Counted from the stretch's first letter, positions 11,570 to 24,599 are shown. The stretch: DNA of 64,000 bases from Dehalococcoidia bacterium (GCA_963662615.2 CAXXSR010000001.1:1901664-1965663); one strand, 5' to 3'. Made by a program: numbers and translations. The notes: generated from the sequence alone by a model not told the origin.

Positions 11570-14200
11570 GTGCCCACAGCCATTGAGGAACTTCGCCAGG
11601 CAGGACAGAGCGTCTGGCTCGACTTCATTCGGCGCGGCTTCCTGCGCTCCGGCGGATTGGAGCGCTATGTCCGCGAAGGCTTGGTAAGCGGCGTGACCTC
11701 CAACCCATCGATCTTTGCGAAAGCCGTGTCCGGCTCTCCCGATTACGACGACGCTCTGCACGAAATCGCCCAGGCAGGCAAAGCGGAACCGTACGACGCG
11801 TTCGTGCAGCTTGCCGTGGACGACATTCAGCTGGCAGCGGACATTCTGCGCCCGGTCTACGACAGTACCGGCGGCGCCGACGGATACGTCTCGCTGGAGG
11901 TGGCGCCAGGAATTGAGGACGACACCGCCCGCACCGTCGCCGAGGCGACGCGCTTGTATCGATTGGTGGACCGGCCCAACGCGATGATCAAGGTCCCGGG
12001 AACGGGCGCTGGGATCCGAGCGCTGGAGGATCTCATCGCCGCCGGGATCAACATCAACGTCACGCTGCTGTTCAACGTGGCCGTGTACGAGGAGGTCGCG
12101 CGTGGGTACATGGCCGGCCTGGAGCGGCGCCTGGAGCAGGGCCAACTGCTCGCCGGTCTCGCCAGCGTCGCCTCCTTTTTCGTGTCGCGAATTGACACCG
12201 CCGTCGAGACGCGCCTGCCCGCCGATTCCCCTCTGCGCGGCGCCGTCGCGGTTGCCAACGCACGGGTCGCCTACGGGCGTTTTCGGGAGATCTTCAGCGG
12301 GCAGCGATGGGAGCGGCTCGCCGGTGCGGGGGCGCGGGTGCAGCGCCCGCTCTGGGCCTCTACCAGCACGAAGAACAAGGCGTACTCGGACGTCCTCTAC
12401 GTCGAAGCGCTCATCGCACCCGACACGGTCAACACGATGCCGGAAACAACGTTGGCGGCGTTCGCGGACCATGGCCGTGTCAATCCAGGCGCAGTGGAGG
12501 ACGGGATTGAAGCGGCGGCGGAAACGCTGAGAGGTGTCCGCTCTGCCGGCATTGACTTTGAAGCCGTCACGGATCGGTTGTTGCAGGAGGGCCTCGCCTC
12601 ATTCGGCGCCGATTTCGACAACTTGCTTCACTGCGTCAGTGATTCGTTGGCAGCGGTACCGGCCGGCAGAGCGCGTCACTCCGCGAACCTGGGCGAACTG
12701 GCTCCGCAGCTGGAAGCGCGATTGCAGACACTGGAGCAGAACGACGTCGTGGGACGGCTCTGGGCCGGGGACTATACGTTGTGGAAGCCGGAACCGGGGC
12801 AGATCCCGGACCGGCTGGGGTGGCTCACCGTGGTCGATGAGATGCTCGACCAGGTCCCTCTCCTCGAGCGGTTTGCGGCGGAGGCGGCTGACGATGGCTA
12901 CGACACGGCCGTCCTCCTGGGCATGGGCGGCTCCAGCCTTGCGCCCGAGGTGTTGCAGGCCACCAGCGGCACGACCGCCGGCGCGCTGCGGTTGGAGGTG
13001 CTGGATACCACCTTGCCCGCGAGCATCCTTGCTCTCGAGCAGCGAATCGATCCGCAACGCACGCTGTTCATCGTTGCGAGCAAGTCCGGCACCACCATCG
13101 AACCGCTCTCGCACCTCGCCTATTTCTTTGAAAAGATCCCGAACAGTCGGCAATTCATCGCCATCACCGATCCCGGAACTCCGCTGGCGGACGAGGCGCG
13201 CGCCCGACAGTTTCGGCAGCTCTTTCTGAACCGGACCGATATCGGCGGGCGCTATTCCGCCTTGTCCCACTTCGGCTTGGTGCCGACTGCCCTGATTGGC
13301 GCGGACATCCGCGGCCTGTTGAATCGCGCACTTGAGATGCTCCACGCGAGCCACGCCTGCGTGCCCGTGCACGACAATCCGGGGGCGTGGCTCGGCGCCG
13401 TCCTCGGCGCGGCGGCACTGGCCGGGCGCGACAAGCTCACCCTCGTCCTACCAGAGTCGATTGCGACGTTCGGATACTGGGTGGAGCAGCTCATCGCCGA
13501 ATCGACCGGGAAAGAGGGCACCGGCATCTTGCCGGTGGAGGGCGAAGCGCTGGGGTCGCCGGACGTGTACGGCGACGACCGGATCTTCGTCGCGCTCGGT
13601 GACGACGACGCGGTGGCGCCTCTTGAAGCGGCGGGCCATCCCGTGGTCCGCCTCCCCTATAGCGAGCCGTCCCAGATCGGCGGTGAGTTCTTCCGCTGGG
13701 AGTTTGCGACAGCCGTGGCGGGCTACCTCCTCGGGATCGACCCTTTTGACCAGCCCAACGTCCAGGAAGCCAAAGAGGCCACGGCGCGCATCCTCGCGGG
13801 CGGGGCGGAGACGCCCGAGACTCCCGCCCTGGCCGACGTCCTCTCCCAGATCCGCCCCGGCGACTACATTGCGATCCAGGCCTACCTCCCCAAGACGCAA
13901 GGGACGGAGGCGGAGCTGCAGGCCGTGCGCCACGCCCTGCGCGATCGCTTCCATGTGGCCACGACGATCGGGTACGGGCCGCGCTTCCTGCACTCCACCG
14001 GGCAGTACCACAAGGGCGGCCGCAACAACGGCATCTTCATCCAAGTCGTCGGTGAGGACAGCGTGGACGTGCCCATCCCGGGACAGCACTACACCTTTGG
14101 CGAGCTTTCCCGCGCCCAAGCCCTGGGCGACCTCCAGTCATTGCAAGCGCACGACCGGCGGGTCACGCGCGTCGCACTGGATGAATTGAAAGGGCTGTAG
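11570..14200 (+). CDS. Bifunctional transaldolase / glucose-6-phosphate isomerase fusion
   Basis: The N-terminal ~360 aa is transaldolase-like (GQSVWLDFIRR, VTSNPSIF, MIKVPGT). The C-terminal ~500 aa is PGI-like (LLGMGGSSLAPEV, IVASKSGTTIEP, GGRYSALS). Confidence 0.92.
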   Translation: MPTAIEELRQAGQSVWLDFIRRGFLRSGGLERYVREGLVSGVTSNPSIFAKAVSGSPDYDDALHEIAQAGKAEPYDAFVQLAVDDIQLAADILRPVYDSTGGADGYVSLEVAPGIEDDTARTVAEATRLYRLVDRPNAMIKVPGTGAGIRALEDLIAAGININVTLLFNVAVYEEVARGYMAGLERRLEQGQLLAGLASVASFFVSRIDTAVETRLPADSPLRGAVAVANARVAYGRFREIFSGQRWERLAGAGARVQRPLWASTSTKNKAYSDVLYVEALIAPDTVNTMPETTLAAFADHGRVNPGAVEDGIEAAAETLRGVRSAGIDFEAVTDRLLQEGLASFGADFDNLLHCVSDSLAAVPAGRARHSANLGELAPQLEARLQTLEQNDVVGRLWAGDYTLWKPEPGQIPDRLGWLTVVDEMLDQVPLLERFAAEAADDGYDTAVLLGMGGSSLAPEVLQATSGTTAGALRLEVLDTTLPASILALEQRIDPQRTLFIVASKSGTTIEPLSHLAYFFEKIPNSRQFIAITDPGTPLADEARARQFRQLFLNRTDIGGRYSALSHFGLVPTALIGADIRGLLNRALEMLHASHACVPVHDNPGAWLGAVLGAAALAGRDKLTLVLPESIATFGYWVEQLIAESTGKEGTGILPVEGEALGSPDVYGDDRIFVALGDDDAVAPLEAAGHPVVRLPYSEPSQIGGEFFRWEFATAVAGYLLGIDPFDQPNVQEAKEATARILAGGAETPETPALADVLSQIRPGDYIAIQAYLPKTQGTEAELQAVRHALRDRFHVATTIGYGPRFLHSTGQYHKGGRNNGIFIQVVGEDSVDVPIPGQHYTFGELSRAQALGDLQSLQAHDRRVTRVALDELKGL

Positions 14201-14203
14201 GTC

Positions 14204-15073
14204 ATGAAAATCGGAATCGTCGGATTGGGACGGATGGGCGCCGGGATCGCCGAGCGGTTGCGCCGCCACGGGCATGAGGTGGTGGGATACGACCGCAACC
14301 CTGCCGTCACCGAAGTGGCGTCATACCAAGAGCTTCTGGAGGCGCTCTCGCCACCCCGCGTGGTCTGGCTGATGGTGCCCTCGGGCGACGCCACCGAGGC
14401 GACGATCAACGACCTGAGCCCGCTGCTCTCGCGCAGGGACATCATCGTTGAGGGCGGCAACAGCTACTACAAGGACTCGATCCGGCGCGCCTCGGAGCAG
14501 GCGGAGCGAGGTCTGGAGTTCCTTGATGTGGGAACGTCCGGCGGCGTCTGGGGACTGGAGGTCGGCTTCTGCCTGATGGTCGGCGGTTCGCCTGCAGTCT
14601 TCGAGACTGTGGAGCCGATCTTCAAAGCGCTCGCGCCTGAGGGAGGCTACGCCCACGTGGGGCCGGCCGGGGCGGGCCATTACACGAAGATGGTCCACAA
14701 CGGTGTCGAGTACGGGATGCTCCAGGCCTACGCCGAGGGCTTCGAGCTCCTGCGCCAATCCGCCTTCGACATTGACCTGCCCCAGGTGGCCGCGCTCTGG
14801 AACCACGGCAGCGTGGTGCGCTCCTGGCTGCTGGAGCTGGCAGAGGACGCGTTCGCCAAGGACCCGAAACTCGAAAAGCTGCGCGGCTACGTGGAGGACT
14901 CGGGTGAAGGACGTTGGATCGTCCTGGAGGCGGTGGAACGGGGAGTCCCCGCCGGAGTGATCGCACATTCGCTCTTCAGTCCCTTCGAATCGCGTAACGC
15001 CGATCCGTTCGCCATGCGCTTCATCGCGGCGCTTCGCAACGAGTTCGGCGGGCACCCGGTCAAGCAGTCGTGA
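14204..15073 (+). CDS. gnd: 6-phosphogluconate dehydrogenase, decarboxylating (short GndA-like form)
   Basis: MKIGIVGLGRMGAGIAERL is the Rossmann motif. GGNSYYKDS and HYTKMVHNGVEYGMLQAYAEG are typical of 6PGDH. Confidence 0.88.
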   Translation: MKIGIVGLGRMGAGIAERLRRHGHEVVGYDRNPAVTEVASYQELLEALSPPRVVWLMVPSGDATEATINDLSPLLSRRDIIVEGGNSYYKDSIRRASEQAERGLEFLDVGTSGGVWGLEVGFCLMVGGSPAVFETVEPIFKALAPEGGYAHVGPAGAGHYTKMVHNGVEYGMLQAYAEGFELLRQSAFDIDLPQVAALWNHGSVVRSWLLELAEDAFAKDPKLEKLRGYVEDSGEGRWIVLEAVERGVPAGVIAHSLFSPFESRNADPFAMRFIAALRNEFGGHPVKQS

Positions 15074-15360
15074 GCCTCGCGGCGCCGGAACCGCAAGATC
15101 TGCTGCTGGTCGGCGCCACGGGTTACCTCGCCCGCCGCAAACTATTGCCGGCATTAAATGAGCTGGGGCAGGATGGACTGCTCCCCCGGGAAGGCCGAAT
15201 CATTGAATACGGCCGTACCGATTACTCCGACGACCAATTCCGCAGTCTCGCCGGCGAAGCGGTGCGCGCAGCCGGCAGCAGTACAGCCGGCGACGCCAGG
15301 GCGCGATTCGCCGAGCGCCAAACAGGTACACGTGAGAGTGATCGTCATCAGCTGAATTGA
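15070..15360 (+). pseudogene. zwf: Glucose-6-phosphate dehydrogenase N-terminal remnant (~90 of ~500 codons)
   Basis: LLLVGATGYLARRKLLPALNEL...LPREGRIIEYGRTDYSDDQFR matches the G6PD NADP-binding N-terminus. Homology ends around codon 85, and only 300 bp separate it from the next gene. Confidence 0.75.
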
Positions 15361-17445: not shown

Positions 17446-19002
17446 TCAGAGCCCGAGCAGCTGAGGCTCCGCTAACGCACGCACTGTGTACACGAGCCCG
17501 ATAGTGATCAGAACGAGCGCGCCGCCGAGCGGAAGAATCCGCAGCAGCCGTCCGTCGAGGCTCACCGTCAAGAAAGGCAGCCAGGCCGTCGCGGGGGAGA
17601 TCCACGTTCCCCGTGCGGAGCCGAGCCAGTCCAGGAGCCGACGGACGTAGACGACTATCAGCGCCATGAACGTGAGAACGGCGGCGAGGCCGATGCTAAA
17701 GGCCAGGATCAGGAGCAGTCCTAGGCCAATGCGGTTGAGCGAGATGGCAGCCACGAGCACCACCAATGTGGAAGGGCTGGGAACCATCCCGTCAATCAGA
17801 CCGATGGCGAACAGGCTCTTGCGGGAGGGGACCGTTACAGCGGCCGTGGTCGTTGAGCCGGGGACGTGTCGGTGGGCATGGTGGTGCGGGTGCAGATGAC
17901 GGAGTCGATGGTCCAGCAAGCCGGCGAGGCCCTGGAATCCGCCCACCCGCGCGAGGAAGAGTCGGATGCCCACGGCAACCACCAACAATCCCGCAACGAG
18001 GGTGAGCCACGGATAGAGGTGTTCCGGCAGGATGTAGCGTGAGCCAAAGAGGACAACCAAGCCGATCACGAAGACGCCAACGGTGTGGCTCACCGCGACC
18101 ACGAAGCCCAGCAACATTGCGTGCCGGACCGATCCACCGGCGCCCACGAAATAGGCGGCAACGAACACCTTGCCGTGACCGGGCTCCAGGGCGTGCAGAG
18201 CGTCGAAGCCCAGCGCGACGAAGAACGAGATCAGGATCACGGCCAGACTGACGTTTTCGACGTTGACGAGGGACGCAAATGCGTTGCCGGGCCGTGGCGG
18301 GGCCACGTCCAGCGCGGCGACTTGGGCTGGTTCCAGCGGTGGAGCGCTCACGCCGGCGCCGGGAGCAAAGTCGACAGTGACCGCACGTACGTTCAGCGGG
18401 CTCGTCAGCAGATCGTCGGGGTAGGTCCGGAGTTCATTCGTCAGGTCGGCCGCGGGCGCAGTGGAGCTGATTAGCGTGACACCTTCCGCGGGACGAACCA
18501 CGATCTCGCGCCAGCCTAGGCGATCGCCGAAATTGTCATCGCGGTATTCCAGGGAGAGCCGCTCAGCGACCGCCGGCGCTTCAAAGGTAAGGACGAGCCT
18601 GAGAGTCTTGAGCCCGGCCTGGCCGCTAGGAAAGCTGAGTTCGTGGGAGAGGAGAGCGAGCGGAAGGGACGACCCCTCTGCGACAAGATGGAGCCCGCCC
18701 CTGAGCTCGACCGCCTTGGCCGAGAGGTAGGCGCGCCGCTCGGCGTCGCTCACGCGGCCGTCGGCGTTCGTGTCGATGGCGTCCATCTCTTGGAACGTGG
18801 GGATCTCCGCCATGTCGACGATGTAGCGGACACGGATCACATCGGCATAGAGGTCGAGACGGCTGTAACTGTTGATGGTGAAGTTGCCCAAGGGATGCGC
18901 CGCCGCGCGGGCCGGCTGGATGAGCGAGAGGACGAAGAAGGCGACGAGCCCCAGCAGCGCCGCCGCGCCCACGAGCCTCCAGGGCCAAGTTCCGCTTCGC
19001 AT
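17446..19002 (-). CDS. NicO/RcnA-family (Ni/Co-type) permease with large N-terminal extracytoplasmic domain
   Basis: It has a signal/TM segment, then a ~250-aa domain (AAHPLGNFTINSY, DTNADGRVSDAE). The permease part carries DALHALEPGHGK and the His-rich loop HRLRHLHPHHHAHRH. Confidence 0.8.
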   Translation of the reverse strand: MRSGTWPWRLVGAAALLGLVAFFVLSLIQPARAAAHPLGNFTINSYSRLDLYADVIRVRYIVDMAEIPTFQEMDAIDTNADGRVSDAERRAYLSAKAVELRGGLHLVAEGSSLPLALLSHELSFPSGQAGLKTLRLVLTFEAPAVAERLSLEYRDDNFGDRLGWREIVVRPAEGVTLISSTAPAADLTNELRTYPDDLLTSPLNVRAVTVDFAPGAGVSAPPLEPAQVAALDVAPPRPGNAFASLVNVENVSLAVILISFFVALGFDALHALEPGHGKVFVAAYFVGAGGSVRHAMLLGFVVAVSHTVGVFVIGLVVLFGSRYILPEHLYPWLTLVAGLLVVAVGIRLFLARVGGFQGLAGLLDHRLRHLHPHHHAHRHVPGSTTTAAVTVPSRKSLFAIGLIDGMVPSPSTLVVLVAAISLNRIGLGLLLILAFSIGLAAVLTFMALIVVYVRRLLDWLGSARGTWISPATAWLPFLTVSLDGRLLRILPLGGALVLITIGLVYTVRALAEPQLLGL

Positions 19003-19005
19003 GGC

Positions 19006-20331
19006 CTACTGCGCCCGTACCGACGACTGCAGCGTGCGGAGGAGGCGGTCCGCCTCATCCCGGTACAGCCAAGAGAAATGAGGGTTGAGTTCCGTCGTCC
19101 GCTCCAAGTAGCCGCGGGCCTCGTCGTCGTCTCCAAGCGCGTAGTGGATCATCCCGGCGTGGAAGAGCATGCGGGCGTCCTTGGTGCCCAGCCGTAGCGC
19201 CTCCCGGGCGTAGTCCAGCGCCTCCGCGTGCCGGCCTCTCTTGTAGAGAGCCCAGGCGAGCGCGTCGGCGGCCTGAATGCTGGGACGGTCTTCGTAGACC
19301 GCGCGGGCTTGCAGCAGCGCCTCGTCCAGGCGCACGTCATGGTCGGCGAAGAAGAGGGCCATCTGCAGATCCGTGTTGATGCCGTTGGCCTTGTAAAGCT
19401 GGTCGATGGCGTCAACCAGCGCGTATTGCCTGGCAGCCTCTTCCACGCGCCCGGCGACCTGCAAGATGTCCCCGAACGCGATGACGTACTCAGGCGTCGG
19501 ATAACGGGCGACGACGTCGCCGTAGAGTGCGACGGCCTCGTCGTATTCGGAGCGCGCGGCGCGGACGTTGGCCAGGCCGGCGAGCGCATGGACGTAAGTC
19601 GGAACCGCCTCCAAGGCGTGGTTGTACGCCGTCTCGGCTGCACGCAAGTCACCGGTCTTGAAGTAGAAATGCCCGAGCTGCACGCGGGCCCAAGCCGAGT
19701 TCTCGGGGAGACGGCCGCCGTCGATCCGCACCGCGTTCCGCCACATCAGCTCGGCCCCCTCAAGGTCGCCGCGCAACTCAAGGAGATAGGCGAAGCGGCT
19801 GAACGACGCGAGGCCCGGCGCCATGCCCGTCATCGTGTTGTAGGACTCTGCCCCCTCTTCGTATTTGCCCAAGGCGAGTTGGGCGTCGCCCAGAACCGCA
19901 TATCCAAACGGCTTGCAGGGGCGAAGGGCGACGGCTCTTTCGGCGAGCGTCAACGCGTCGGCAAATTCATGCTGGGCGCCGTAGACCAGCGAGAGCTGCA
20001 CCAGCGCCTCATAGTTCTCGGTGGGCAATGATTCGAGCGAGGCCGTGAGCGCCGCTTCGGCTCGATCGTAGTCGCCAACGTCGCCGGTCTGGCGCGCTCG
20101 CCGGATATACGCGTCCGCCAGCTTGTTGTAGCTAATGAAGTCGCGCGGGTCGCGCTGGGCCCGCTGGCGCCAGAAACGGATCGTGGCATCGATCGTCGCG
20201 GTGGAGTCGACCGAAACGTCGGCGGAGGTCGGCTTCGGATCCGAACCTCCGCAGCTCGCCAGGAGAAGCGCGAGGGCGAGAGCCGCCAGCACACCTCCGA
20301 GGATCGACCCACGCTTCGCCAACGCGTCCAC
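19006..20331 (-). CDS. TPR-repeat lipoprotein
   Basis: The lipobox is LLLASCGG, followed by multiple TPR units. The upstream part of ORF 19006-20592 overlaps the DUF4331 gene, so a GTG at 20331 or TTG at 20322 start is preferred. Confidence 0.8.
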   Translation of the reverse strand: MDALAKRGSILGGVLAALALALLLASCGGSDPKPTSADVSVDSTATIDATIRFWRQRAQRDPRDFISYNKLADAYIRRARQTGDVGDYDRAEAALTASLESLPTENYEALVQLSLVYGAQHEFADALTLAERAVALRPCKPFGYAVLGDAQLALGKYEEGAESYNTMTGMAPGLASFSRFAYLLELRGDLEGAELMWRNAVRIDGGRLPENSAWARVQLGHFYFKTGDLRAAETAYNHALEAVPTYVHALAGLANVRAARSEYDEAVALYGDVVARYPTPEYVIAFGDILQVAGRVEEAARQYALVDAIDQLYKANGINTDLQMALFFADHDVRLDEALLQARAVYEDRPSIQAADALAWALYKRGRHAEALDYAREALRLGTKDARMLFHAGMIHYALGDDDEARGYLERTTELNPHFSWLYRDEADRLLRTLQSSVRAQ

Positions 20332-20392
20332 CCTCCGGCTCACAGGCTCTCGCCCCACGCTTCGACGTTCGTACGTCGCCCGATTCACCTCC

Positions 20393-21779
20393 CTAGGGCA
20401 GCTCAACCTGGATCGTCGTCGCTCGGGAGGTGAGGACGAAGAACCCCATGCCTCGCGTGATCTCGATGGTGGGTCGGATCCCGGACGGCAGCTCTTCCGT
20501 GTCCAGGATGTACTGTCCCGTGCTCGAATCGAACGTCCAGATCCGCAGGATTGCGGGGTTGGCAGCCAGCAGCTCCGCCGACGTCGTGTCACGCCCGAAC
20601 CAGCCCACCAAGCTCAAGCCGCTGGGGAGCGACATACTAACGACGACCGCCGGCTGGTGGGGTGGCGCCAGGTACGGGAACGAGTCGAGGAAGGGCACGT
20701 CGTTGGCGTCAATGGCGTCGCCGACCGTGCGATCGAGCACCAGCGCCAGGGCGATATCGATGACGTCGTCGGTGAGCGTCCGGCCGTTGAGGTTGGGGAA
20801 GTCGACCGGCTTGGAGAAGTCGATCGTCACGACATCAGGCAGAACAGCCGCCGCAACACCCCCGGCAGACACGTCTCCGAGCGGTCCCCCATCTGGGGCC
20901 GGCAGCACCGCATCGACGGCGTCACGGAGCCGCTGGATCTCGTCGGTCGCCGCGGCGAGGAAGGCCTCGACGTCGTTGACCGGGTCGCCTTGATTGTACG
21001 TGTCCTTGCTGCCACTGGGCACGGCGGCGGTATTGATGGCGGGGATCGCCATCCGATCGATCCGCACGCCGCCACGTGAAGTGGTCGCCCAGGCCCGGAT
21101 CACGCCGGTGTCGGAGGTGGCTTCGCCGGTGAGCGCCGTAATCGGCAACTCGACCACGATCGCGGAGACGTTGAGGCCCGCGAGGGTGTCCGATGGCGTC
21201 TCGCCCGCCGGCCGCAGGCCCGCGGCGGGAACGAACGGCGCCGCGACGAAGTTGTTGAACCCGACGAGGTCGAAGAAGAAGGGGTCATCGCGCTGGCCGG
21301 CGAACACCTTGACCCCGCCGGCCTCGGTGATGATGGGGGCCGGTGCAGTCGGGTCCGTAGAAGGCGGCGTCACCGGGCCGCTCATCTCGAGCCCGAGGGC
21401 GGCAACGGTCAGGGTGAACTCCAGGGGGTCGCCGCCGAAGGTGACGGTGACCGTGGCATCCGCGACGAAGTCTGCCGTGTTGTCCACGTGGATCTCGTAG
21501 GCCACGTCGGTGGCGAAGTTCCTGGTGTCGTTCTCTGGCGGCGCGGTCAGTGGGTTGACCGTGAGAGCGACCACCAGATTGTCGGGGTTCTCGGGACTGC
21601 GGAAGGCGTAGATGTCGTTTATGTCCGCCTGGGGGTCAGCGAGAACACCTGGCGCCTCGGCGTGATCGGCCCCTTCCAACAGACCCGTCAACCAGATGGT
21701 GATGACGGTGGCAGCGATCCCCAGCCCAACGAGCAGGATTCAGCGGGGTCCGGGGCGTGACTCGACTCAGGACTCGCAT
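20393..21779 (-). CDS. DUF4331-family secreted protein (probable 1-nt frameshift near 21737 as sequenced)
   Basis: DINDIYAFRSPENPDNLVVALTVNPL and DPFFFDL are typical of DUF4331. ATG 21779 has a GGAGG 6 nt upstream and encodes MRVLSRVTPRTP. The hydrophobic signal ILLVGLGIAATVITIWL is in the +1 frame. Confidence 0.8.
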
Positions 21780-21885
21780 CGGTTTCCTCCGTCTCATGGT
21801 GGGACGCGAGCGCGTCGTGCGGCGCGGTCCCGCCGGTAGTTCGGTTGAGACGACCGGCCGGATCACAAGGCTCAAGGGAGTGACG

Positions 21886-22602
21886 TCAGAACTCTTCCAG
21901 CGGGGCCACGATCAAGGGATCGCTCGTGGGCTGCTCGCTCCCGCCCGAGGGCTCCTCGCTAAGCGCTATCGCCGTCGTCAGATCGCGCTCAAGCGAGACA
22001 ACGATGCGCGCCACACCGTCCGCGCTGGCATTGAAGATGCCGGCGGACGCCGCCCCTTCAGGCCCAATCGTCCAAACCTGATAGACGCGATCGGCCGGAA
22101 GTGGCGACAGTCCCCGAAATTGGAGTACGGCAAGGGCTTCGCTTTCAAGGAAGAGGACGCGCCCGCTTGCTCCGGAGGCGCCTTCGAATTCGTAAACCAC
22201 AGGAACGGCGGCGGCGCCGTCGTCCGACACCTGCAAGACGACGTTCCAGCTCAGCAGCCCGATTGCGAGCAGGGCCAGGGCAGCGGCCACGGCGACCGCA
22301 TTGAGGCGGATGCGTCCCAAGGAGGGTCGACGCCCGGTGGCGATCGTTGTCGGCTGATGGCTGATCCCAGGGGCCGGGCCCGCCTCTCCCGAGACGGCGT
22401 CCAGCAGTCGGTCCCGCAGCGCCGGTGGCGGCGTGCGCTCCGGCGTCGAGGCGGCGAGGCTGAGCGCGGCCGCCCGCAGCGCCACGACGTCCTCGTGAGC
22501 GTCGCAGCTTGAGAGGTGCCTGAGCAGCTCGTGGTGGGCGTCAGGGGGTAGCGCGCCGAGCGCGAATGCGCCCAGGAGATCCTCTACCTCAGCGCACGTC
22601 AC
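21886..22602 (-). CDS. Anti-sigma factor (zf-HC2 N-terminus, RskA-type extracytoplasmic domain)
   Basis: The N-terminus is MTCAEVEDLLGAFALGALPPD...HLSSCDAH. A TM segment follows, and C-terminal VYQVWTIGPEGAASAGIF is typical of anti-sigma-K RskA. It overlaps the sigma gene by 14 nt. Confidence 0.8.
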   Translation of the reverse strand: MTCAEVEDLLGAFALGALPPDAHHELLRHLSSCDAHEDVVALRAAALSLAASTPERTPPPALRDRLLDAVSGEAGPAPGISHQPTTIATGRRPSLGRIRLNAVAVAAALALLAIGLLSWNVVLQVSDDGAAAVPVVYEFEGASGASGRVLFLESEALAVLQFRGLSPLPADRVYQVWTIGPEGAASAGIFNASADGVARIVVSLERDLTTAIALSEEPSGGSEQPTSDPLIVAPLEEF

Positions 22603-23173
22603 TGCTTGTTCTCGCTTTCAGCGCTTCGCGCAACTTCTCAAGTCCCAGTCGCAGCCGGCTCTTGACTGTGCCCAATGGGAGTTCCAGCCGTTCCGCGATC
22701 TCCACGTGGGTGAAACCGTCGAAGTAGGCCAGTTCAATGACGCGGCGCTGGTCGTCGGGCAGCAGATCCATGCTGCGGTGCGCCGCGGCGCCGTCCAGCG
22801 TGGCGATGGCCGCGGCGGCGACGTCCACCTCGTCCAGCGCGTCGACTTCCGGCTGCAGCGACACCTCGTGCACTGCCCGCTTCCGGCGCGCCCGCGCAGA
22901 GTCGATAGCGCGCCGGTGGACGATGGTCAGGAGGAGTGCGGCGACGCTCCCGCGCTCCGAGTCGAGCCGGTCGCTCTGTCGCCAAACAGCGAGGAACGCA
23001 TCTTGGACCACGTCTTCCGCTTCCGGTCCGTCCCCAAGAATCCGGTAGGCGAGGCCGAAGGCCCGGCGACCCAGCGCCTCGAACAGGAGGGGCATCGCCT
23101 GGGGATCGCGGCGCCGGAGGAGCTCAATGAGCTTCTCGACGTCCTGATCGGTAGTTCCGCCAGCGCCGGGCAT
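22589..23173 (-). CDS. ECF-type RNA polymerase sigma factor
   Basis: Region 2 is AEDVVQDAFLAVW and region 4 is LPDDQRRVIELAYFDGFTHVEIAERLELPLGTVKSRL. ATG at 23173 is preferred over the 390-aa ORF-track start. Confidence 0.88.
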   Translation of the reverse strand: MPGAGGTTDQDVEKLIELLRRRDPQAMPLLFEALGRRAFGLAYRILGDGPEAEDVVQDAFLAVWRQSDRLDSERGSVAALLLTIVHRRAIDSARARRKRAVHEVSLQPEVDALDEVDVAAAAIATLDGAAAHRSMDLLPDDQRRVIELAYFDGFTHVEIAERLELPLGTVKSRLRLGLEKLREALKARTSSDVR

Positions 23174-24123
23174 CGGATCACTCGCCTTCGCGCGTATGGG
23201 CGGCAAGGTTATCGCCTGGAGCCTCTCCATTTCCAGGTGGCGCACCGAGGCTGAGCCGCGATCGGTAACGTCTGACCCGGCGCGCAGGTAGCGGGCGGTC
23301 CCCCTCCTTGAGGCGCCGCTGGCGTTGCATTTAGTGTCCGTGGCCCACCGGACTACCCCGTCGACGGTCCGCCTCGCCTGCGGAGGGTCGCGGGTTCGAC
23401 CGGCGGCCCTAGAGCGGTAGACACTTCGGCGGCGGCGGACAAGGCACGGCCGCGACGTACGGGCAAGCGCGCTCGAGAAACTTGCGGACGAGCAAGCGGA
23501 GCATGTGGGGTAGCAGCGCGCTAACCGGTGGGGGCGAAGGCCGCGGCGCTTGGCGGCTGCAACCACAACGTCGGCGCGTCTACGCGGACCCAATAAGCTC
23601 CCCCGTGGACGAGGGGCGCGAGGTCGTTCAGCGTTGCCGGGCGGCCTGGCGCAAAAGATGTGAAGGCCTGCGAGGCGGCGTCGAACGCGAACGTGACGGT
23701 GAGGGCGTCGCCCAGCAACGAGAACGCCTCGAGCGGATTCATCCTCGGGGGGCCGGTCCACGTCAGCAGATTGAAGCCTGACTCCAGCTGATGCGGGCCG
23801 GGCTCTCCGATCAGCGGCTGGTCCCAGACGATCGGTTCGGCGACGCGCAGCCAGAGTGCCGATCCTCGCGCGATGTGGTCGAGTGAATTGAGGAAGCTCG
23901 GAGCCGAGGCGTTCCAGATCCGGTAGGACTGACGAGTGGCATCGAAATTAGCTGCCGCTACCGTCTGATCCACGATCGAGGCGATGGCGTCATCGAACGG
24001 GGTCGCCAGCCCCGTCCAGCCGACAAGGTTCCATCCCTCCACCAACGAGACAGGTCGCTTCACACGCCGGGCAGAAGCAGGCGCGGCGGCGGCTGGAGCG
24101 ATCGGGACGGTTTCGTTGCTGTC

Positions 24124-24200
24124 GGCCGCGGGCGCCGTTGGCTCGGCCGCAGGCGCCGTTGGCTCGGCCGCAGGCGCTGTTGGCTCGGCCGCAGGCGCGG
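24124..24200. repeat. 21-bp tandem repeat x3.7 (encodes PAAEPTA linker)
   Basis: Units ggccgc(g/a)ggcgc(c/t)gttggctc occupy 24124-24144, 24145-24165 and 24166-24186, plus a partial unit. Confidence 0.9.
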
Positions 24201-24303
24201 CGGCGGCGGGGGTAGTCGGTGCCGTCGGGGCGGCGGCGGCCGGTGCAGTCGGGGCAGGTTCTTCGCTCTCGCCGCCGCAGGCAGCGAGGAGGAGGGCGAG
24301 GGC

Positions 24304-24362
24304 GGTGGCGAAGACGGTGGCGAAGCGGTGGCGAAGACGGTGGCGAAGACGGTGGCGAAGGC
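24304..24362. repeat. 12-bp tandem repeat x5 (encodes FATV units), one unit only 11 nt
   Basis: The units are ggtggcgaagac / ggtggcgaagc / ggtggcgaagac / ggtggcgaagac / ggtggcgaaggc. Confidence 0.9.
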
Positions 24363-24599
24363 GGGGGCCCGGGGACGTCTATGCAGGTGCTGCCGCCTGC
24401 GCGGTGTCAAAACCTCATCCGCTGTCAGGTCGCGGGGGACGGCGATGCGGCGCCAGATTGGAGGGTCCACGTTACTCGGTGTGACCTGGAGTTCACAGAC
24501 CTCCCGGCCGTACCTGGCGTCGTGGTTCGTCGTCACACCGTGCTCGCACCTCGCGGATGCCACCAGGAGAGCGTATCCCGTCCCCGCGGCTCCGACAGT

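Follow-up and report, generated by a model that had tools for sequence, protein, structure and literature searches.

A sigma factor-associated DUF4331–TPR–permease gene cluster from a Dehalococcoidia bacterium: a candidate extracytoplasmic metal capture module

We analyzed a 64,000-nt stretch of DNA from a Dehalococcoidia bacterium (GCA_963662615.2, CAXXSR010000001.1:1901664-1965663; hereafter the window, with positions counted from its first letter), and describe here a cluster of five minus-strand genes that it carries. These encode an extracytoplasmic function (ECF) sigma factor, an RskA-type anti-sigma factor, a protein of the DUF4331 family, a tetratricopeptide repeat (TPR) lipoprotein and a two-domain permease. 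The cluster belongs to a module found in many bacterial phyla, which we read as a candidate system for capturing and importing a transition metal. A first-pass annotation, made from the sequence alone, had called it an envelope metal module; we report which of its claims held.

Genes and promoter motifs of the cluster

The window has a G+C content of ∼67% and its closest relatives are metagenome-assembled genomes of the Dehalococcoidia/Chloroflexota. The features of the cluster, in the direction of transcription, are:

23154..23180, minus strand: ECF-type promoter-like motif P1 (TGATCCGATGCCCGGCGCTGGCGGAAC), 5′ of the sigma gene, from comparison across loci
22589..23095, minus strand: ECF sigma factor, SigK-like, 168 aa, from Pfam, NCBIfam and homologue starts
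21886..22602, minus strand: RskA-type anti-sigma factor with zf-HC2 and RskA_C domains, its gene overlapping the sigma gene by 14 nt
21839..21865, minus strand: ECF-type promoter-like motif P2 (TGATCCGGCCGGTCGTCTCAACCGAAC), between the anti-sigma gene and DUF4331, 59 nt upstream of the DUF4331 ATG
20393..21779, minus strand: DUF4331 protein (PF14224, E 7e-50), frameshifted in the window
19006..∼20343, minus strand: TPR lipoprotein, from multiple TPR Pfam families and a family-specific hidden Markov model (HMM)
17446..19002, minus strand: two-domain permease, 518 aa, from the NCBIfam RcnA subfamily (E 4e-22) and hhalign against RcnA

Pfam and NCBIfam matches bear out the five minus-strand open reading frames (ORFs) and the families that the first-pass annotation had given them, and its junction coordinates are correct (anti-sigma stop at 21886, DUF4331 stop at 20393, TPR stop at 19006, permease ATG at 19002). 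The sigma/anti-sigma overlap at 22589-22602 likewise stands, the identical 14-nt overlap being found in independent gene calls (sister contig L007). For the TPR gene there are three candidate starts, GTG 20343, GTG 20331 and TTG 20322.

The sigma factor matches Sigma70_r2 (68 bits, E 5e-19), Sigma70_r4_2 (57 bits, E 2e-15) and Sigma70_ECF (49 bits) in Pfam; it has sigma-2 and sigma-4 domains only, and its 168 aa lie within the ∼160–200 aa expected for the ECF class. Its start had been placed at 23173, which is most likely wrong. Because that ATG falls inside the conserved promoter-like motif at 23154-23180, and because the 163-aa homologues begin exactly 59 nt downstream of the motif, at the position equivalent to the window ATG 23095, the gene most likely starts at ATG 23095. 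The best NCBIfam match is SigK (PRK09646, E 6e-44), at 150 bits against a cutoff of 226, and the window protein contains no cysteine, the Cys133/Cys183 pair of Mycobacterium tuberculosis SigK being absent; on these two grounds we call it SigK-like rather than a SigK equivalog. That pair is kept in 94% of ECF18 and 56% of ECF19 members (PMC7509140).

The anti-sigma gene lies directly downstream. Its product has an N-terminal zf-HC2 domain (28.5 bits, cutoff 22.2), one transmembrane helix and an extracytoplasmic C-terminal RskA_C domain (75.9 bits, cutoff 29.4; E 5e-21), with the hydrophobic stretch IRLNAVAVAAALALLAIGLLSW between the two domains, and it exceeds the cutoff of NCBIfam NF052375 (135.9 vs 100 bits). 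The zinc motif is H-x3-C-x2-H, not H-x3-C-x2-C. The activating signal of RskA-type anti-sigma factors is still unknown (PMC7509140).

DUF4331 is recognized with 170.9 bits against a cutoff of 27. The ATG at 21779 chosen in the first-pass annotation is the start of the intact, 461-aa gene in L007, but in the window it is out of frame, lying 88 nt (+1 frame) from the main DUF4331 ORF, whose first in-frame start is TTG 21691. A TGA at 21742-21740 follows this ATG, and the hydrophobic core of the signal peptide comes after it in the main frame. At 21739/21740 the window has an extra A (CTGAATCC, vs CTGATCC in L007), the two contigs being 99.48% identical. Over 12 kb they differ by six single-base indels (12048, 12094, 12299, 17229, 17232 and 21739-21740), three of them within a single other gene, a transaldolase-PGI fusion (11570-14200), and for this reason an assembly error is at least as likely as a real pseudogene.

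Alignment of the DUF4331 upstream regions of Dehalococcoidia-type loci gave the bipartite motif TGATC[CT]-N16-[CG]GAA[ACT], in consensus TGATCC-N16-CGAAC. It has 44 matches in all the DNA collected for this work (2.62 Mb, both strands), 26 of them just upstream of a sigma gene or of DUF4331. Eight distinct Dehalococcoidia-type loci (11 rows with near-duplicate contigs) have it exactly 59 nt upstream of the sigma start, and 11 distinct loci, nine of them Dehalococcoidia-type (15 rows with near-duplicate contigs), have it 53–110 nt upstream of DUF4331, where it is kept even if the sigma pair is divergent or is separated from DUF4331 by inserted genes. Judged by this comparison, the pattern is the expected signature of an autoregulated ECF sigma factor with one adjacent target operon, and P1 is probably autoregulatory for the sigma gene. 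The significance of the motif comes only from the cross-locus comparison: within the window alone, a loose search for GATCC-N13-18-CGAA gave 7 matches vs 5.8 expected, which is not significant, and a generic scan for sigma-70 promoters and terminators gave nothing above shuffled controls.

The head-to-tail packing had suggested co-transcription of all five genes. They are indeed co-directional, but because the second copy of the motif, P2, lies inside the cluster, transcription strictly as one unit is unlikely to give the full picture; the promoter evidence defines two putative co-directional transcription units rather than an obligatory five-gene transcript.

Conservation of the module across phyla

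A DUF4331 alignment was scanned over one genome per species, finding >580 loci with a relative, of which the 80 best were kept and scored with HMMs built from the window cluster; the denominators below count the loci with enough sequence. The order sigma, RskA, DUF4331, TPR, permease is identical in three loci whose flanking genes are unrelated, and this recurrence in unrelated genomic contexts excludes chance. The specific TPR partner is directly downstream of DUF4331 in 62/70 loci, from at least eight phyla and in every phylum sampled. Its HMM matches reach down to E 1e-125, so this is not generic TPR similarity, and by sequence and position the TPR protein appears to be a dedicated partner of DUF4331.

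The permease of the window type (an N-terminal domain joined to NicO) follows in 21/23 Actinomycetota and 13/16 Chloroflexota loci (34/39 together), and in only one of ∼20 Gram-negative loci. An ECF sigma gene is found in the flanks of 12/14 Chloroflexota, 12/19 Actinomycetota, 3/6 Bacteroidota and 1/6 Acidobacteriota loci, and an RskA-type anti-sigma gene in 10/14, 11/19, 3/6 and 1/6, respectively. This pair may be upstream on the same strand, upstream and divergent, or downstream, and is the least fixed part of the module. The first-pass annotation had made its proposal depend on co-occurrence of DUF4331 with NicO-like and sigma/anti-sigma genes in other genomes; such co-occurrence is strong, and the proposal survives.

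In other phyla the transporter changes. The product of the gene that follows DUF4331 (or DUF4331 and TPR) in Verrucomicrobia, Acidobacteria and one Proteobacterium has a signal peptide, an extracytoplasmic domain with a His at the predicted cleavage site, and a HupE_UreJ_2 membrane domain (PF13795; E 1e-34 to 6e-45, cultured Proteobacteria included). Among cultured bacteria, the combination of DUF4331, a ∼400-aa TPR-like protein and HupE/UreJ is found in Marinobacter adhaerens HP15, in a Comamonadaceae isolate and in Lichenicola cladoniae. The locus of Pseudoalteromonas sp. CF6-2 runs ECF sigma, RskA_C anti-sigma, DUF4331, an Ig-like protein, TPR and a HupE_UreJ_2 permease that starts with the His-bearing (His1) domain. 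In the Bacteroidota, where DUF4331 is split into two genes, the TPR gene comes next and is followed in 5–6 of eight loci by an orthologous TonB-dependent receptor that has a CarboxypepD_reg domain at its N-terminus; of the six Bacteroidota loci with enough flank, three have a divergent ECF/RskA_C pair. From gene content, the invariant core can thus be given as DUF4331, TPR and a transporter, the last drawn from three unrelated and interchangeable families. HupE/UreJ proteins and TonB-dependent transporters are both routes of nickel and cobalt uptake (reviewed in PMC7689651).

Streptomyces anulatus has DUF4331, TPR and an annotated ‘nickel transporter’ that starts ...ATA/HPLGNFSVN (here and below a slash marks the predicted cleavage site). 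Its locus (L089, plasmid NZ_CP109126, 6926-15356) continues with a second DUF4331 gene, a sortase and a fasciclin-domain protein. Two DUF4331 genes also occur together in L014, L028, L048, L053, L069 and L076; in L014 and L028 both copies have a TPR gene of their own downstream, and in the other four the copies are side by side. Ten Acidimicrobiia loci (L035, L040, L042, L043, L061, L062, L070, L078, L085 and L087) have, directly upstream of DUF4331, a gene for a conserved membrane-anchored protein of 320–390 aa with no Pfam match. Since these loci mostly lack an adjacent sigma/RskA pair, this protein may be an alternative sensor, or it may be a further component of the module.

The extracytoplasmic proteins and the permease

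In all 81 non-redundant DUF4331 ORFs examined, from all phyla, the signal peptide is followed by the pattern [A/G]/(SS, AD, AS or SD)-His-x-[D/E]-x-Pro. An A or G stands at −1 in 80/81 and a small or aliphatic residue at −3 in 79/81, and by the (−3,−1) rule the mature protein would begin X-X-His, which in the window is A-D-H. X-X-His at a free N-terminus with no Pro at position 2, the amino-terminal Cu(II)- and Ni(II)-binding (ATCUN) motif, binds both of these metals; the predicted DUF4331 N-terminus is of this type. Structure prediction and a fold search of DUF4331 had been proposed as a way to find metal sites. The AlphaFold2 (AF2) model is confident (mean predicted local distance difference test score, pLDDT, 86.5), but it has no relative in the PDB, either by fold (best E 5e-3, TM-score <0.3) or by sequence (0 matches at E≤10).

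The C-terminus of DUF4331 varies. In Dehalococcoidia relatives a PxTG-like sorting signal, then a transmembrane helix and a basic tail make up the end of the protein; the window protein and that of L001 have in their place an extra C-terminal beta domain of ∼85 aa. The split form of the Bacteroidota (L021, L024, L026, L032, L036, L045, L074, L080) consists of two adjacent genes, one for an N-terminal half of ∼220 aa that starts ...A/ADHIDAP and one for a C-terminal half that is a lipoprotein of ∼180 aa. The TPR protein has the lipobox LLASC and four near-invariant residues, H161, R219, W400 and H431; it may serve as an adaptor.

The permease has two domains behind its signal peptide, with these features:

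18898-19002, minus strand: signal peptide
18268-18897, minus strand: extracytoplasmic His1 beta-sandwich domain (N-domain), residues 36–∼245
18739-18774, minus strand: EF-hand-like loop, D77–E88
17446-18255, minus strand: RcnA-like NicO membrane domain
18169-18195, minus strand: HALEPGHGK, residues 270–278
17866-17910, minus strand: His-rich loop, residues 365–379

All the motifs that had been named in the permease (HALEPGHGK, the His-rich loop, AAHPLGNFTINSY and DTNADGRVSDAE) are present, and DTNADGRVSDAE is a canonical EF-hand-type loop (profile match to EF-hand proteins, E 1.7e-4). Kinship with NicO/RcnA was also upheld. The window permease on its own narrowly misses Pfam NicO (E 0.01) and falls short of the NF007454 cutoff (78.7 vs 195 bits); among its full-length homologues, which are abundant at 44–63% identity, 52/53 match PF03824 at E≤0.001 (best E 1e-22). 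An hhalign comparison of the family with Escherichia coli RcnA gave a probability of 99.9% (E 6e-32, 30% identity over 189 columns), aligning HALEPGHGK with HGLEPGHSK, GMVPSPS with GLIPCPA and H365–H379 with the His-rich loop of RcnA. H270, P274, G275, H276, G277 and K278 are invariant in the family. RcnA proteins are recognized by H-x-x-E-P-G-H-x-K in the first membrane helix together with a mid-protein His-rich loop, and the permease carries both marks. NiCoT transporters are marked by the signatures (R/K)HAxDADH(I/L), FxxGHS(T/S)(V/I)V, LGx(D/E)T(A/S)(T/S)E and GMxxxD(T/S)xD (PMC7689651). The permease offers a loose H-A-x-E-x-x-H resemblance to the first and lacks the other three, so it is classed as RcnA-type, not NiCoT.

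The likeness to RcnA raises the main rival to import, a metal efflux or resistance system. Here envelope metal stress would free the sigma factor and the permease would export nickel or cobalt, with DUF4331, TPR and the His1 domain binding or buffering the expelled metal or gating the exporter, as RcnB modulates RcnA. Besides the shared signature and His-rich loop, it can draw on the adjacency of E. coli rcnA to rcnB, which encodes a periplasmic accessory protein (PMC7689651), and on the ECF sigma/anti-sigma control of Cnr nickel/cobalt resistance (mentioned in PMC7826278). However, DUF4331-TPR is coupled in other phyla to the importers HupE/UreJ-2 and TonB-dependent receptors (PMC7689651), permease-fused domains with an N-terminal His have been read as capture devices (PMC12537917), and no metal-excess sensor of the RcnR/CsoR type was seen among the neighbouring genes examined in module loci. 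We consider efflux unlikely.

The N-domain is the other distinctive part. H36 is invariant in 53/53 permeases, preceded by Ala at −1 in 52/52 and by A, V or T at −3 (an A-x-A site), and is predicted from this to be the first residue of the mature protein. The domain belongs to a family of 3,606 representative clusters (E≤1e-3; 1.84 billion representative proteins searched) and, in nearly all of the 150 best matches listed, begins at residue 20–45, right after the signal peptide. Apparent fusions TPR-Ndom-NicO (P0289 and P0383) and Ndom-CHASE-PAS-GGDEF-HD (P0373) were rejected. P0289 and P0373 are gene-call artefacts of frameshift or read-through on high-GC contigs; P0289 keeps an intact signal peptide in mid-protein, and P0383 was treated as an artefact by analogy only. 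The AF2 model has pLDDT >90 over residues 40–190 and consists of strands 43–51 and 55–64, helices 66–76 and 86–102, and then six strands. When searched with Foldseek against the PDB, as the first-pass annotation had advised, the permease model gave one significant match, the Cu-bound Ang-1 domain 9GCE (E 1.9e-4, probability 1.0); Zn-bound ZrgA ranked next.

Ang domains have an N-terminal His forming a mono-histidine brace and are proposed by their authors to ‘fish’ for metal that feeds the attached permease; Ang-1 binds Cu2+ (Kd ∼74 nM) and Ni2+ (∼220 nM), and Ang-2 binds Cu2+ (∼62 nM) (PMC12537917). Both bind Cu2+ most tightly, which is one argument for an envelope metallochaperone or sensing system that makes no net import: DUF4331 and TPR would supply copper or nickel to extracytoplasmic enzymes, or report metal status to RskA, and the permease would be a supply or relief valve. 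Cupredoxin-like and CopC genes within 8 kb in three related loci point the same way, as does the fact that RskA-type anti-sigma factors lack a known signal (PMC7509140). These neighbours, however, are weak Pfam matches and are not conserved in the window, and a dedicated transporter of some family is almost always present, so that transport seems central to the function. We regard a chaperone or sensing role alone as improbable.

There remains the idea that the module has nothing to do with metals. DUF4331 and TPR might be a structural, adhesive or enzymatic pair at the surface, for example a Ca-dependent one, and the permease, as a member of the DsbD/LysE superfamily, might carry a different solute or reducing power, in the manner of DipZ from the SigK regulon of mycobacteria. 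The Asp/Asn-rich core of DUF4331 and its fold without a known relative fit this, and the window permease matches Pfam DsbD_2 weakly. The M. tuberculosis SigK regulon includes DipZ and fasciclin proteins, with Mpt70 and Mpt83 as the hallmark SigK-RskA targets; a fasciclin gene also lies close to the S. anulatus module and may connect its regulon with that of SigK. However, the membrane domain has the RcnA His/Glu signature and none of the CcdA/DsbD cysteines, which rules out a redox function of the DsbD/CcdA type. Two unrelated families of metal permease interchange beside DUF4331, and both extracytoplasmic proteins have invariant N-terminal His motifs (predicted). A non-metal function is thus highly improbable.

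Interpretation and relation to known systems

We favour the reading of the cluster as an ECF-sigma-controlled system for extracytoplasmic capture and import of a transition metal, because it explains all the module variants, and give it a probability of roughly one half. The regulated extracytoplasmic metal capture or efflux system of the first-pass annotation gains support from the co-occurrence of its genes, the His motifs, the 9GCE match, the exchange of transporters and the shared ECF promoter, but its metal and its direction of transport are things we can only infer. Sequence comparison establishes the gene content, the synteny, the promoters, the invariant His positions and the homology to RcnA. 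Nickel is the single best guess, as the one metal that fits all the evidence: ATCUN chemistry, Ang-1 binding and the RcnA, HupE and TonB-dependent families of nickel/cobalt transport; cobalt or copper is possible.

Under the import reading, an extracytoplasmic cue would release the SigK-like sigma factor held at the membrane by the RskA-type anti-sigma factor, and the free sigma factor would direct transcription of its own operon at P1 and of the operon for DUF4331, TPR and permease at P2. Cleavage of exported DUF4331 would expose its X-X-His site for binding of Ni(II) or Cu(II) in the envelope; in close relatives the protein would be anchored by its C-terminal PxTG-type sorting signal. The TPR lipoprotein would be a membrane-proximal adaptor, and metal would be handed to the N-terminal His of the permease beta-sandwich, an anglerase-like ‘fishing’ domain. 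This ectodomain would feed the RcnA-like NicO channel, where H270, E273, H276 and H306 would lie in the membrane and the His-rich loop on its other side.

Several points weigh against capture and import. ECF sigma factors more typically control stress and resistance systems, Cnr among them, than nickel/cobalt uptake. E. coli RcnA is an exporter that works with periplasmic RcnB (PMC7689651), so the NicO variant of the module could be an efflux system. In its conserved core DUF4331 has many Asp and Asn residues, in Ca-like motifs, but a single invariant His, and its main function could for that reason be other than metal capture; the window's own copy is moreover frameshifted. The cleavage sites of DUF4331 and of the permease rest on the (−3,−1) rule, not on a trained predictor. 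The fold match to 9GCE is modest (TM-score 0.41 on the target, rmsd 8 Å); a profile search of PDB sequences (E≤10) found no homology of the N-domain to 9GCE, and hhalign of the N-domain against HupE-fused N-domains was not significant, aligning only the EF-hand-like loop. Nor does genomic context fix the metal: neither riboswitches (Rfam) nor known metal regulators were found in the window or in 25 loci without an adjacent sigma gene (one tRNA was the only Rfam-type match), and no flanking gene in the window is metal-related.

The flanks hold pentose-phosphate genes, a protein with an RNA recognition motif, a family 2 (GT2) glycosyltransferase and a CHASE-PAS kinase. An upstream ORF at 23521-24063 (minus strand) was tried as a module member and rejected, as it is not conserved upstream of the sigma gene in L001. 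It encodes 180 aa without a Pfam or NCBIfam match, comprising two repeats of ∼85 aa (GWNLVGWTG... and GFNLLTWTG...) that weakly resemble the extra C-terminal domain of the window DUF4331 (BLASTP E 4e-4). Next to it are G+C-rich tandem repeats at 24122-24198 (21-nt unit, 3.7 copies) and 24294-24368 (12-nt unit, 6.2 copies), in a region with long low-complexity ORFs on both strands. On the other side, 15070-15360 (plus strand) encodes only the first ∼96 aa of glucose-6-phosphate dehydrogenase (G6PD_N), as does the same short ORF in L007; adjoining 6PGD, TAL-PGI fusion and transketolase genes, it looks like a truncated zwf in a pentose-phosphate cluster.

The anglerases are among the closest known systems. 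They share with the window permease a signal peptide, an invariant first His, an Ig-like beta-sandwich with a helical insert after strand 2 and a multi-helix permease of nickel/cobalt type, and Ang-type HupE/UreJ-2 proteins fill the same slot beside DUF4331-TPR in Proteobacteria, Verrucomicrobia and Acidobacteria. The membrane domain, however, is RcnA-like NicO (PF03824) here and HupE_UreJ_2 (PF13795) in Ang. Because of this different permease family, and because sequence similarity is not detectable, we treated the N-domain as anglerase-like and not as a member of Ang-1 or Ang-2. DUF4331, a TPR partner, NicO and sigma control are all absent from the anglerase paper, which lists the genes most often found beside Ang only as coding for proteins of unknown function (PMC12537917).

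The E. coli rcnR-rcnAB system resembles the cluster in H-x-L-E-P-G-H-x-K, in the position of the His-rich loop, in G-x-x-P-x-P and in having an extracytoplasmic accessory component. Unlike RcnA, the window permease has a fused ectodomain of ∼210 aa and Ser in place of the Cys of GLIPCP; its genes are linked to an ECF sigma factor instead of RcnR, its partners are DUF4331 and TPR instead of RcnB, and its direction of transport is probably opposite.

With mycobacterial SigK-RskA (ECF19) the cluster has in common a SigK-like sigma factor, an anti-sigma factor made of zf-HC2, one transmembrane helix and RskA_C, overlapping and seemingly autoregulated genes, a small local regulon of secreted or membrane proteins, and an activating signal that is unknown (PMC7509140). 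It differs in the missing Cys133/Cys183 and in its targets, DUF4331-TPR-NicO rather than mpt70/mpt83/dipZ. FecIR-FecA uptake and CnrYXH-CnrCBA resistance follow the same logic, from a metal-related cue through a membrane anti-sigma factor and an ECF sigma factor to adjacent transport genes, but their anti-sigma factors are FecR or CnrY/X instead of RskA_C, and their transporters and capture proteins are different. The Bacteroidota module has a TonB-dependent receptor, but its anti-sigma factor is of RskA type.

Each domain family in the cluster has been catalogued before, and the anglerase idea dates from a 2025 publication. The open literature searched contains no paper naming DUF4331, PF14224 or IPR025566, and the word ‘anglerase’ in only one 2025 paper. 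The DUF4331-TPR-transporter module, its ECF/RskA control, the ATCUN-type N-terminus of DUF4331 and the NicO-fused anglerase-like domain are not described in that literature.

A bolder version, tentative and on balance doubtful, would make DUF4331 and TPR a pan-bacterial capture pair with a new fold and an ATCUN N-terminus, handing nickel, copper or cobalt to whichever importer the lineage has (anglerase-NicO, anglerase-HupE or TonB-dependent receptor), with RskA_C reading the metal loading of the pair; envelope metal status would then be the long-sought SigK/RskA signal.

At the level of the family, DUF4331, which >580 species in one genome collection carry, gains a testable function, and culturable carriers exist (Pseudoalteromonas sp. 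CF6-2, Marinobacter adhaerens HP15 and Streptomyces anulatus). The anglerase concept would come to cover a second permease family besides HupE/UreJ-2, and anglerases appear to be part of a regulated module of four to five genes rather than stand-alone fusions. RskA-type anti-sigma factors would be linked to a concrete physiological output and would acquire a candidate signal.

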